A stretch of DNA of 64,000 bases from Planctomycetaceae bacterium. Lineage in GTDB: Bacteria > Planctomycetota > Planctomycetia > Planctomycetales > Planctomycetaceae. The DNA is taken from the NCBI GenBank assembly GCA_034439795.1, contig JAWXBB010000103.1, forward strand, positions 7,423 through 71,422, written 5' to 3'. This document shows, piece after piece, positions 54,796 to 59,321 of the stretch. The first letter of the stretch is position 1; every line of letters begins with the position of its first letter. Under the pieces are notes generated by a model. It was not told the DNA's origin, made no database searches, and saw only the letters and a program-made list of their open reading frames with translations. The position numbers were made by a program, and so were the translations under genes.

Positions 54796-56130
54796 TTAAT
54801 GCGCCCCGATCAATTCCGCCGGCTTGATCGTGGATTTCTTACTCTGGATGTACTCTTCGAACTCCGGGCGGAACTTTTTGATCGCGTTCTTGACCGGCCA
54901 CGCCGCGCCGTCGGACAGGCCGCAGATGGTGGTGCCGGGGATGATGCCGATCGAACTCGACACTTCCATCAGCAGGTCCAGGTCGCGGAGTTCCCCCTGT
55001 CCCGAACGGATGCGGTACATGATTTTCTCCATCCACGCCGTGCCTTCCCGGCACGGCGTGCATTGGCCGCAGGACTCGTGCGAGAAGAACCGACAGCAGT
55101 TATACAGCACGTCGACCATGCTGGTGGCGTCGTCGATGACCACGACGGCCGCCGTCCCCAAACCCAGGCAGCCGACTTTGCCGGGGCCGCTGAAGTCCAG
55201 CGGCGTATCGAGTTCGCTCGCCGACAGGAAGCCCATGCTGATGCCGCCGGGCACCACGGCTTTCACCTGCCGGCCGTTGGGCACGCCGCCGCCGTATTCT
55301 TCGATGAGTTGCCGGGCGGTGATGCCGAGCGGCATTTCGTAGCAGCCGGGTTTGTTGACGTGACCGCTGAGACAATACAGCTTCGGCCCGTAGCTGCCGG
55401 CGTCGCGGGGGTTGTTCGGGTCGGCGGGCACGCCCATCGACTTGAACCACGCCGAGCCGCGGTCGAGGATGTGCTTCACGCAGGCCATCGTTTCGATGTT
55501 GTTGACAATCGTCGGCTTGCGGAACAGCCCCTCAATGGCCGGAAACGGCGGCTTGATCCGCGGCCAGGCCCGCTTGCCCTCGAGGCTTTCAATGAGGCCG
55601 GTCTCTTCGCCGCAGATGTACGCCGCCGCCCCGCGGTGCAGGACGATGTCGCACTTGAACCCGGACCCCAGCACGTTGTCGCCAAGAATACCCGCGGCGT
55701 AGCACTCCTTCACCGCATTGTCGAGCGCGCGGTAGCTCTTGCCGTATTCGTAGCGCAGGTAGAGGTAAGACGTGTTCGACTTGATGGCGAAACACGAGAT
55801 GATGATGCCTTCGATGATCTGATGCGGGTCTTCCTCCATCAGAATCCGGTTGTTGAACGTGCCCGGCTCGGACTCGTCGGCATTGATGGCGAGATAAATC
55901 GGCCCCGGATGCCCCTTCGGCAGGAACGTCCATTTGACGCCGGTCGGAAACCCCGCCCCGCCGCGGCCGCGCAGGCCCGAGTCTTTGACGACGTTGATGA
56001 CGTCTTCCGGCGGCATCGCGAGCGCCTTGCGCAGCGCGTCGTAGCCGCCGTCGCGACGGTAGGTCTCAAGCGTCGCGCTGTCCGGCTTGCCGATGCGAGC
56101 GAGCAGCACGGGTTCAAATTTGGGCATCAA
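54796..56130 (-). CDS. nuoF: NADH-quinone oxidoreductase subunit F
   Basis: GLRGRGGAGFPTGVKW (FMN/NADH site). ESCGQCTPCREG (4Fe-4S). Confidence 0.9.
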   Translation of the reverse strand: MMPKFEPVLLARIGKPDSATLETYRRDGGYDALRKALAMPPEDVINVVKDSGLRGRGGAGFPTGVKWTFLPKGHPGPIYLAINADESEPGTFNNRILMEEDPHQIIEGIIISCFAIKSNTSYLYLRYEYGKSYRALDNAVKECYAAGILGDNVLGSGFKCDIVLHRGAAAYICGEETGLIESLEGKRAWPRIKPPFPAIEGLFRKPTIVNNIETMACVKHILDRGSAWFKSMGVPADPNNPRDAGSYGPKLYCLSGHVNKPGCYEMPLGITARQLIEEYGGGVPNGRQVKAVVPGGISMGFLSASELDTPLDFSGPGKVGCLGLGTAAVVVIDDATSMVDVLYNCCRFFSHESCGQCTPCREGTAWMEKIMYRIRSGQGELRDLDLLMEVSSSIGIIPGTTICGLSDGAAWPVKNAIKKFRPEFEEYIQSKKSTIKPAELIGAH

Positions 56131-56166
56131 TGATCACCTAACGAGGCCGAGGATTGGCCTTCAGTT

Positions 56167-56412
56167 TCAATTGGCTGTTGGTGCTTTGCCGCCGCGGAAT
56201 GAAAAATCTTTCGGTTCGATCAGATGCACACCGCCATCGCGCCAAACCGCCATTTTCTGATGACGAAATTCATACCAAGCGCGAGCGGCTTCAATCGACT
56301 CGGCTACCAACTCCGACACCCGGCAGGGATCGGCAGCCAGTTCGACCATCCGCCGCGCGATGTCGTCCGGAGGCGACTCATCGCCGAATTTGTTCCCAAC
56401 GGGACTGATCAT
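56167..56412 (-). CDS. Small hypothetical protein downstream of the zeta-like kinase (candidate partner/antitoxin)
   Basis: 81-aa ORF in a lower-GC insert between nuoE and nuoF. Overlaps the 3' end of the upstream gene by 35 nt (alternative in-frame ATG at 56349). No recognised motif. Confidence 0.35.
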   Translation of the reverse strand: MISPVGNKFGDESPPDDIARRMVELAADPCRVSELVAESIEAARAWYEFRHQKMAVWRDGGVHLIEPKDFSFRGGKAPTAN

Positions 56413-56956
56413 GGATGACGATCTCCTTCAACTTGTTCCCGCTGGCCACGACCTGAAAATCTTCCCCCGAATTGTCGAAAATCTCCCAATGATCGGCCAA
56501 GGGAAGATACAACTCCCACAGATTCTTCACACTGCGCTCGTATCTCCGCCGAATGTCGTCAATCGGAATGTCGTGACCTCCCGAAGCCACTCGCGCCGCC
56601 ACTCGCTGGACTGCCAGATCGGCATTCTGTAACCACACGTAGAAGAGGCAAATCGCATATCCGTCTTCTCGAAGCTCCTTGAACCAGGGGGCAAGCGTTC
56701 GGGCTGCCAATGTCGTTTCAAAAGCGAAGCTCTCTCGTTTGGCGGCCAGCTTCCGCATTTGCTGGAGCATCACCTGACTCGCCTGCCATGCCACACCCTC
56801 TGGACGAAATGCACTGAGGCCACGGGCAATCACATCGGCGTTCAAAAAAGTTTCGATGCCCAATCCATGCCTCAGAAGTCCTTCGCTGAGGGTGGATTTC
56901 CCGGCCCCATTCGGCCCCGCCATAACACCCACACAAGGCTTGCTGGACTTTTCCAT
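56378..56956 (-). CDS. Zeta-toxin-like P-loop kinase / COG4185-type ATPase
   Basis: ORF 56378..56971 (GTG). ATG 56956 is preferred (MEKSSKPCVGVMAGPNGAGKSTLSEGLL, Walker A GPNGAGKST). At approx 190 aa with a downstream acidic FETTL segment, it matches small zeta/AAA_33-like kinases. Lower GC than the flanking nuo genes. Confidence 0.7.
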   Translation of the reverse strand: MEKSSKPCVGVMAGPNGAGKSTLSEGLLRHGLGIETFLNADVIARGLSAFRPEGVAWQASQVMLQQMRKLAAKRESFAFETTLAARTLAPWFKELREDGYAICLFYVWLQNADLAVQRVAARVASGGHDIPIDDIRRRYERSVKNLWELYLPLADHWEIFDNSGEDFQVVASGNKLKEIVIHDQSRWEQIRR

Positions 56957-56977
56957 CCCTGCCGACTCCACCCGATA

Positions 56978-57451
56978 TCACATCTTTCCAATCAATTCTT
57001 CCGCCTTCTCCGGCGAAATGTTCATCTCACAGTTATCATCAATCAACATGCACGGTGCCCCCTCGCACGCCCCCAGGCACTCGGCGAACTCCAGCGTCAC
57101 TTTGCCGTCCTCAGTCGTTTCGCCCGGTTTCAGGTGGTACTTCTCGCAGAGGTGTGCCAGCAGTTCTTCGCCGCCGCGGAGGGCGCAGCTGATGCTGCGG
57201 CAGACCCAGACGCGGTGCTTGCCGAGCGGGTGCTGCTCGTCGCGGAAGAAGCCGTAGAACGACATCGTGTCGTGGACTTCCGCCGGGTGCAGTTCCAGCA
57301 TGGAGGCGATCTCCTTGATCGCCTCCAGCGAGACGTAACGGAACTCGTCCTGCACCATGTGCAAAGCGGGCAACGTCACCGCCTGCTTGGTCGGATACTT
57401 GGTACACAAGTGCCGAATCTGCTCGCGCATCGGCTCGGTCAACGCGGACAT
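56978..57451 (-). CDS. nuoE: NADH-quinone oxidoreductase subunit E (2Fe-2S)
   Basis: CRSISCALRG ... CLGACEGAPCMLI cysteine pattern. 157 aa. Confidence 0.9.
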   Translation of the reverse strand: MSALTEPMREQIRHLCTKYPTKQAVTLPALHMVQDEFRYVSLEAIKEIASMLELHPAEVHDTMSFYGFFRDEQHPLGKHRVWVCRSISCALRGGEELLAHLCEKYHLKPGETTEDGKVTLEFAECLGACEGAPCMLIDDNCEMNISPEKAEELIGKM

Positions 57452-58745: not shown

Positions 58746-59321
58746 TCAGAGCGCCGCATCCTTTTGCGGAAAGAACTCCGCGACGCGCATCTGGAATCCG
58801 GGAAGCACGTCTTCGCCCGACAACTGTGATTCCTCTCCGAAATGATCTTCGCTGCCGTCGAGTCGATGGACCGTCACCGAACGACTCCTGGGGCTGGCCA
58901 CCCAGATCAACCGCACGCCCGCCGAACGATACTCCTGAACCTTCGCTTCCACATCGTAGAACAAGTCGTTGGGCGAAATCACTTCGACGACCAGGTCGGG
59001 AGAAATGAGGCAATGCCCCTCGGCAAACTGCTCCCGCGACAGGCGTCCCCTGGCGATAAAGCTCACATCCGGCCGACGCACTTTATCCGGCGCGTCCGGA
59101 TAGCAGCGATAGGTGGCCTCGCTCGTGAAAACGTGTCCCAAGCCATGTTGATTGACATACGCAATCAAGTAGTGAATGAATTGACCGGCGACGCAGCAGG
59201 CTTCCAGGCTCATGTTGGTCTCCACCAATTGTCCATCCACGAGTTCGTAGAAACGACGATCGGGGAGTTTTAGAAACTCCTCGGGAGTCATCAGGCTGGG
59301 TACATCAATGACGGTGGCCAT
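58746..59321 (-). CDS. Uma2-family (DUF820) PD-(D/E)xK nuclease-like protein inserted in the nuo operon
   Basis: 191-aa ORF. N-terminal MTPEEFLKLPDRRFYELVDGQLVE and the core RRPDVSFI ... SPDLVVEVISPND match the Uma2 pattern. The ATG lies 3 nt after the nuoC stop. Confidence 0.8.
   Translation of the reverse strand: MATVIDVPSLMTPEEFLKLPDRRFYELVDGQLVETNMSLEACCVAGQFIHYLIAYVNQHGLGHVFTSEATYRCYPDAPDKVRRPDVSFIARGRLSREQFAEGHCLISPDLVVEVISPNDLFYDVEAKVQEYRSAGVRLIWVASPRSRSVTVHRLDGSEDHFGEESQLSGEDVLPGFQMRVAEFFPQKDAAL

Follow-up and report, generated by a model that had tools for sequence, protein, structure and literature searches.

A two-gene insert between nuoE and nuoF

We analysed a 64,000-nt stretch of contig JAWXBB010000103.1 from the Planctomycetaceae bacterium assembly GCA_034439795.1 (hereafter the window), which carries genes for respiratory complex I on its minus strand in the order nuoB, nuoC, a Uma2 nuclease-like gene, nuoD, nuoE, an insert, nuoF, nuoG and nuoH. 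The insert, a cassette of two open reading frames (ORFs) on the same strand, fills 847 nt between nuoE and nuoF and is the subject of this study. Its upstream flank is nuoE (56978..57451, minus strand; 157 amino acids (aa); Pfam 2Fe-2S_thioredx, E-value 1.3e-44), which ends with a TGA stop at 56978-56980, and its downstream flank is nuoF (54796..56127, minus strand; 443 aa; Complex1_51K, 2e-43, and NADH_4Fe-4S, 3e-30). Both flanks are well conserved, with identities to the proteins of relatives of 76-90% for NuoE and 90-98% for NuoF.

The first gene of the cassette (56378..56956, minus strand, with its stop at 56378-56380) encodes a zeta-toxin-family P-loop kinase of 192 aa that matches the Pfam families Zeta_toxin and AAA_33. 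Read from the sequence, a 21-nt spacer (56957..56977, minus strand) containing a Shine-Dalgarno-like GGAG separates the nuoE stop from the kinase ATG. A longer reading from a GTG at 56971 would add five residues (56378-56971, minus strand; 197 aa); the ATG at 56956 is the start conserved among relatives and is also that of the database protein P0001. The second gene (56167..56412, minus strand; ATG at 56412, stop at 56167-56169) encodes a small protein of 81 aa, overlaps the 3′ end of the kinase gene by 35 nt and is likewise preceded by a Shine-Dalgarno-like sequence, AAGGAG. Gene callers have chosen an internal ATG at 56349 that gives a 60-aa product (P0121). We prefer the 81-aa reading because the family alignment and the structural model place the first helix upstream of the Met at 56349; the core of the protein is identical under both readings. 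By sequence reading the small gene is followed by a spacer of 39 nt (56128..56166, minus strand) up to the nuoF ATG at 56127, or of 36 nt if nuoF is started from a TTG at 56130; the ATG, as in relatives, is most likely the true start. This layout agrees with an initial annotation made from the sequence alone, which described a P-loop protein of about 190 aa with the motif GPNGAGKST beginning about 20 nt past the nuoE stop, and an overlapping 81-aa ORF ending 36 nt before nuoF, the last figure being the distance to the TTG.

The insert DNA is compositionally foreign, and the lower GC content remarked on in the initial annotation was borne out by measurement. Its GC content is 0.561 compared to 0.626 for nuoE and nuoF together, and the GC content at third codon positions (GC3) is 0.617 in the kinase gene and 0.585 in the small ORF, that is about 0.60, compared to 0.84-0.87 in nuoC, nuoD, nuoE, nuoF, nuoG and nuoH. 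Inside the insert, a consensus scan of the minus strand detected neither a sigma-70-like promoter nor an intrinsic-terminator-like site, in line with the earlier remark that the two genes have no obvious promoter or terminator of their own, and the same scan of the coding strand from nuoA to nuoF placed promoter-like sites solely upstream of nuoA. Because the insert lacks a promoter or terminator motif of its own, its transcription presumably depends on read-through from the nuo operon.

A zeta-family kinase and its conserved downstream partner

The product of the first gene is a zeta-toxin-family, COG4185-type kinase, as had been suggested from its motif. It matches Zeta_toxin (PF06414) with an E-value of 1e-10 and 41.8 bits against a cut-off of 22.3, and AAA_33 with 6e-9, while NCBIfam and PADLOC scans gave matches at the level of the P-loop only. 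Over 7,600 homologues were found, with lengths of about 195 aa, and sources that name them use 'predicted ABC-type ATPase' or 'zeta toxin family protein'. The AlphaFold2 (AF2) model of the kinase has a predicted local distance difference test score (pLDDT) of 93.2, and its top Foldseek matches in the PDB are AvrRxo1-ORF1 (4Z8Q), zeta (3Q8X/1GVN) and PezT (2P5T), with template modelling (TM) scores of 0.69-0.75. Other kinases scored lower, at 0.45-0.57 for adenylate, PFKFB, shikimate or gluconate kinases and 0.63 for polynucleotide kinase.

An alignment of 48 family sequences, including the window protein, defined a set of invariant residues, all of which the window kinase retains (G14, N16, G17, G19, K20, D41, E80, T82, R118, R122, G126, G127 and H128). 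The Walker A motif GPNGAGKS (with K20) and D41 are among these and match the positions reported for zeta, PezT and Rv0366c of Mycobacterium tuberculosis. In Rv0366c the relevant residues are 9-GPNGAGKS-16, Asp36, Glu75, Arg116 and His122 (PMC6362051), and the same spacing is found in the window kinase (G14-S21, D41, E80, R122 and H128, at offsets of +5 or +6), a comparison that uses published positions rather than a direct alignment. Judged by these motif positions, the kinase appears to belong with Rv0366c in a 'COG4185' branch of about 195 aa. Rv0366c is bacteriostatic on overexpression and is neutralised by an upstream ribbon-helix-helix (RHH) antitoxin (PMC6362051). On inspection of the sequence, the GTXR motif that forms the UDP-N-acetylglucosamine (UNAG) site of larger zeta toxins is absent; E80 is followed by T-T-L-A-A-R, and the family consensus reads FETTLASRS. 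The substrate is probably something other than UDP-GlcNAc. A literature search found no paper on COG4185.

The small second gene was harder to place. It belongs to no Pfam or NCBIfam family, a PADLOC scan likewise returned nothing credible, and the 81-aa ORF used as a single query retrieved itself alone. Homologues became visible with a profile hidden Markov model (HMM) made from 22 partners. In 22 loci from the same GTDB family the kinase is followed by an ORF of 65-85 aa, mostly overlapping the kinase stop by 1-10 nt, and these ORFs have in common a helix followed by a motif like G-x-P-[IVM]-x-x-W-[RK]-D-G-x-V-V. By HMM the partner lies directly downstream of the kinase in 85 of 112 loci, including 62 of 80 from diverse phyla (Proteobacteria, Bacteroidota, Acidobacteriota, Verrucomicrobiota, Nitrospirota and others); about ten of the loci missed by the HMM have a small overlapping ORF of the same or related design, and two stop at a contig edge. 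The profile found 745 proteins in a word-indexed collection, all of them unnamed or 'hypothetical' and none with a Pfam domain, and 3,935 cluster representatives in a library of 1.84 billion proteins; in the window's own genome the profile hit scored 5.9e-18.

Two natural fusions of kinase and partner were also found, one of 252 aa (L073) and one of 302 aa (P0103). Compared to the two closest relatives, the kinase shows a ratio of nonsynonymous to synonymous substitution rates (dN/dS) of 0.08-0.11, the partner one of 0.14-0.30 (0.11-0.17 in its core) and the nuo flanks one of 0.04-0.07. These low values indicate that both genes of the insert are protein-coding and constrained. The small ORF is thus, on its synteny in 85 of 112 loci and its dN/dS, a genuine conserved gene, which bears out the small downstream partner of the initial annotation. 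From this conservation and the fusions we infer that the partner binds the kinase and keeps it harmless, in the manner of an antitoxin.

The AF2 model of the partner, whose core has a pLDDT above 90, consists of two helices and a beta-hairpin, and a Foldseek search with this model gave no match with an E-value below 1. Profile matches in the PDB to designed beta-propellers ('Cake' and 'Scone') were dismissed, as they reflect a repeated DG-hairpin motif only. Similarly, a protein of 1425 aa (P0243) that the partner profile matched in 22 stretches is most likely a repeat protein of the hairpin motif and no true relative.

Distribution and exchange of the cassette

The window's own genome has one copy of the cassette. 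Among ten genomes of the same genus, kinase and partner are present at the nuoE-nuoF junction in five (G000, G061, G063, G067 and G068), and the junction is empty in the other five (G038, G062, G064, G065 and G066), with a spacer of about 50-110 nt; in G038 the distance from the nuoE stop to the nuoF ATG is 46 nt. Uninterrupted junctions, which the initial annotation had proposed to look for in related genomes, are thus found in half of the congeners. The left part of the 21-nt spacer between nuoE and the kinase resembles the spacer at the empty site of G038. No clear scar was visible when the junction was aligned to the empty site or to relatives, and around the cassette no terminal direct or inverted repeats or target duplications were found beyond chance-level 10-17-mers.

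The kinases of the congeners are 45-54% identical to the window kinase, compared to 90-93% for NuoF. The database kinases most similar to that of the window are likewise encoded between nuoE and nuoF (P0002 and P0018, 80-84%; P0003, P0005 and P0027, about 58%), and a genome of another genus (G059) also has its kinase at this site. In a tree of 110 kinases of known context, a constraint that joined the 11 junction kinases as one clade was not rejected by the approximately unbiased (AU) test (p 0.835), and the constrained tree had a likelihood above that of the free quick search. Since the constrained tree was not rejected, a single old insertion at the junction is plausible. A first kinase tree, which contained database proteins of unknown context and had suggested several origins of the nuo-embedded copies, was set aside in favour of this one.

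Cassette types do not track host phylogeny. The nuoF DNA places the window as sister to L136, with 96% identity, yet the cassette of L136 is of the type found in G061 and G068, and that of the window is of the type found in L001 and L004, an allele swap at one site. Similarly, G068, which has a cassette, groups with the empty G065 by nuoF DNA. An alignment of the window with L136 shows 35-65% identity over the cassette and the spacer and then 90-100% from about position 56127, the start of nuoF. This sharp breakpoint is probably the trace that would be expected of replacement by recombination in the conserved flanks.

Where the cassette has decayed, the partner is the part that remains. In L001-L003 a 1-nt deletion breaks the kinase and leaves the partner intact. 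Across 21 other genera with nuoE next to nuoF most junctions are short, and two of them (G012, locus L143, and G040, locus L147) contain an intact partner alone, with HMM E-values of 2e-10 and 6e-13; the G012 genome is without any kinase and G040 has a distant kinase only. A third junction (G047, L148) contains a partner-like ORF with an in-frame TAA stop. A kinase without a partner was not seen at any nuoE-nuoF junction. That the kinase is the part lost and the partner the part kept, with no case of the opposite, is what one would expect of a harmful kinase and a protective partner. In one further genome (G051, L146) a nuoE-nuoF gap of about 237 nt holds GC-rich palindromic repeats, like repetitive extragenic palindromic (REP) elements, and no gene. 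Within the GTDB family of the window, a NuoE match at E-value <= 1e-20 was obtained in only 22 of 60 sampled genera; many relatives may have a divergent NuoE or be without complex I of this type.

The cassette is found in many other places. In the diverse loci a large gene on the same strand often ends between -8 and +35 nt from the kinase start. The genes directly before the kinase include housekeeping genes (GlnS, LepA, Adk, TrmD, LigA, DapF, SucC, UbiD, ManC and methylmalonyl-CoA mutase) and restriction or defence genes (MmeI-type, HsdS twice, a DNA methylase, NOV_C helicase, Schlafen/AlbA_2 and Fic/RhuM). In a proteobacterial metagenome-assembled genome (L109, 1830-4539) the pair lies between sucC and sucD, with stop and start codons overlapping at all three junctions, a parallel to nuoE-nuoF in a second essential operon, and in L092 and L102 its two neighbours are hsdS and hsdR. 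Small ORFs upstream of the kinase were heterogeneous in the 80 diverse loci (XRE, MoaD, glyoxalase and PIN), and no recurrent upstream antitoxin of the Rv0367c type was seen there.

The kinase gene is also present on 505 plasmid records, with a homologue on an E. coli plasmid among them, and the complete pair was found on both plasmids inspected, where the partners match the HMM and bear the RefSeq label 'hypothetical protein'. On a Legionella conjugative plasmid the pair follows a Tn3 transposase. On pSYSG of Synechocystis PCC 6803 (L164, 2339-5842) the order is hsdS, an MNT-type nucleotidyltransferase, the zeta-family kinase, a 59-aa partner, a DUF4433 (DarT-like) gene and a macro-domain (DarG-like) gene, a row of stacked toxin-antitoxin or defence genes in a model cyanobacterium in which the pair could be studied. 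Our literature search found no paper on the zeta toxin of pSYSG.

Tight placement behind or between cistrons is a frequent habit of the cassette, and the arrangement, which had at first seemed unusual, is ordinary for this family. The link of the cassette to complex I is best explained as positional rather than functional. The idea that the pair is a regulator tied to respiratory gene expression is unlikely to hold, given that the pair occurs in sucCD and hsdSR, after glnS, lepA and ligA, and on plasmids, and that half of the congeners are without it.

Nature of the cassette and comparison with known systems

We consider it probable that the insert is a promoter-less zeta/PezT-like toxin with a new type of downstream antitoxin, moving horizontally and exchanged through its conserved flanks. 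The first gene would encode a short zeta/PezT-type P-loop phosphotransferase, and the second, translationally coupled to it, a small helix-helix-hairpin protein of an unnamed family. The cassette would be a long-standing occupant of the nuoE-nuoF junction in this group of planctomycetes, evolving far faster than its flanks, as a conflict locus would. It would be gained, lost or replaced there, probably by recombination in the conserved nuo flanks, and on decay the kinase would be lost first and the partner would stay. Riding on nuo transcription, it may be kept by addiction, by a defence benefit or by both. A hitch-hiking addiction module, as the initial annotation had proposed, fits the evolutionary pattern: the cassette is patchily present, its alleles are swapped, partners occur as orphans and one lineage has a frameshifted kinase.

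Several points weigh against this explanation. Toxicity and neutralisation in this branch of kinases are argued by analogy, and the tested relative, Rv0366c, has an upstream RHH antitoxin instead; PADLOC models match the window kinase no further than the P-loop. The partner has no similarity to epsilon, PezA or Arc1 detectable by PDB profile or fold search, so the case for binding comes from synteny and the fusions only. The trees were obtained by 'quick' searches and their deep nodes are weakly supported. L136 is a short metagenome contig, and its breakpoint could in principle be an assembly chimera. Finally, a kinase with a regulatory subunit and a benign cellular role is formally conceivable.

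The strongest alternative, although rather unlikely, is that the pair is a phage-defence system of the abortive-infection type, in which the partner would hold the kinase inactive until infection frees it. Restriction-modification and defence contexts are common, such as hsdS-kinase-partner-hsdR in L092 and L102 and the MmeI-type, DNA methylase, NOV_C helicase, Schlafen/AlbA_2 and Fic/RhuM neighbours, and on pSYSG the pair has hsdS/MNT on one side and DarT/DarG-like genes on the other. Defence loci also typically diverge fast, are present in some genomes and absent from others, and swap alleles at a single site, as the cassette does. These points are offset by the absence of any PADLOC family match beyond the P-loop, by the finding of a homologue in only 4 weak phage records and by the many copies that lie behind housekeeping genes, outside defence islands. 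Phage defence overlaps with, and is compatible with, the toxin-antitoxin explanation that we favour.

We regard as improbable a benign role as an enzyme of two subunits, in which a small-molecule or nucleotide kinase and its regulatory subunit would serve complex I or NAD(H) metabolism and be co-expressed with the NADH-binding module. Its site between nuoE and nuoF, in the NADH-dehydrogenase module, the fact that the best structural match, AvrRxo1, is a NAD 3′-kinase, the purifying selection on both genes and the presence of the pair at the junction across several genera all agree with such a role. Against these stand the absence of the pair from five of ten congeners and from most genera that have nuoE-nuoF, its occurrence in unrelated operons and on plasmids, its foreign GC3, the 45-58% identity of same-site cassettes compared to 84-98% for NuoF, and the loss of the kinase where the partner is kept. 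Least probable of all is that an old insertion has died and decays as junk that the spacer tolerates, neither translated nor functional: the frameshifted kinase of one related lineage, the fragments in other genera and the atypical codon composition would suit this, but both window ORFs are intact with all family-invariant residues, the kinase has a dN/dS of 0.08-0.11 and the partner one of 0.14-0.30, and Shine-Dalgarno-like sequences precede both starts.

Taking the insert as a toxin and its antitoxin, we compared it with four known arrangements. In the first, Rv0366c-Rv0367c (PezT(Mtb)/PezA(Mtb)), the toxin is also a short zeta kinase (about 197 aa) with GPNGAGKS, the same Asp/Glu/Arg/His spacing and no GTXR. 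Its antitoxin Rv0367c is an upstream RHH/ParD-like protein of 129 aa that is reported to be restricted to Actinobacteria (PMC10532202), whereas nuoE lies upstream of the window cassette and no upstream RHH/ParD-like antitoxin is present at the window locus. The window partner is downstream, unrelated and without a recognised DNA-binding domain, and the cassette lacks its own promoter.

The best structural match is AvrRxo1-ORF1 with Arc1 (AvrRxo1-ORF2) from Xanthomonas and relatives (PDB 4Z8Q, TM 0.75; PMC4938570). There, as in most cassette loci, the kinase comes first and is followed by a small neutralising partner, a role that the partner studied here would share. AvrRxo1 is a far larger, type III secreted effector (the crystallised chain alone has about 330 residues), in contrast to the window kinase of 192 aa, which has no N-terminal extension and so lacks the large N-terminal secretion region of AvrRxo1. 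No AvrRxo1-ORF2/Arc1 chain was among the PDB sequence-profile or Foldseek matches of the partner.

Epsilon/zeta of pSM19035 and PezAT of Streptococcus pneumoniae (PDB 1GVN, 3Q8X and 2P5T) share the zeta fold and the Pfam family with the cassette. Like epsilon, the candidate antitoxin is small and without a recognised DNA-binding domain, so regulation would have to come from elsewhere, from the host operon for the cassette as from omega for epsilon/zeta. In contrast, the antitoxins of epsilon/zeta and PezAT are upstream and helical, their toxins have about 250-290 aa with a GTXR UNAG site, and both systems have an autoregulated promoter of their own and are typically found on plasmids or islands rather than between cistrons. 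No upstream antitoxin of the epsilon/PezA type in an autoregulated operon is present in the window, where the upstream gene is nuoE and there is no promoter-like site.

The PrrC anticodon nuclease, encoded between hsd genes, is an example of the accessory toxin genes of type I restriction-modification operons. Such genes are also promoter-less selfish or defence genes wedged into a host operon and expressed with it, as the cassette presumably is. The proteins are unrelated, and the host operon of the cassette can be an essential housekeeping one (nuo, sucCD). For PrrC-type genes the neutraliser is a host enzyme, whereas for the cassette it would be the partner that travels with the toxin.

A recent survey of zeta/PezT found many toxins to be 'orphans' and examined upstream genes alone (PMC10532202). 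As a bolder proposal, which we hold tentatively and with less conviction than the toxin-antitoxin assignment itself, the small downstream protein may be the antitoxin that the short zeta/PezT kinases listed as 'orphans' had seemed to lack, and the founder of a family of thousands, and the pair may form a promoter-less 'cistron-wedge' element that lodges in essential, strongly conserved operons and uses their flanks as homology arms for spread, replacement and loss without a recombinase of its own. If so, the nuoE-nuoF junction of these planctomycetes would be a long-lived, allele-swapping conflict locus within a respiratory operon. A conserved partner that databases list as 'hypothetical' could fill the antitoxin gap of these kinases, and the locus would show how a selfish or defence module with neither promoter nor recombinase can persist for long in an essential operon, diversify inside it and leave orphan antitoxin-like genes behind. 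This bears on the tolerance of operons to foreign cistrons, on the annotation of thousands of genomes and on the choice of toxin-antitoxin pairs for biochemistry; in practical terms, neither gene of the insert should be annotated as a complex I subunit.

The nuo operon of the window also contains the Uma2-family nuclease-like gene (58746-59321, minus strand; PF05685, 1e-31) between nuoC and nuoD. It starts 3 nt past the nuoC stop, has a GC3 of 0.68 compared to about 0.84 in its neighbours and also matches the PADLOC candidate PDC-S03 (5e-18). The relative L001 has only a 62-nt gap at nuoC-nuoD, which identifies the Uma2 gene as a second, independent foreign insert in the operon. Between nuoF and nuoG, where the window has 72 nt only, close relatives carry a HicB-like antitoxin gene (L001, 6186-6404; L002, 4338-4556; L004, 2341-2535), and L004 has an additional ORF of 88 aa. 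Small genes of the toxin-antitoxin type thus seem to accumulate at more than one nuo junction of this clade, at several of them in all.

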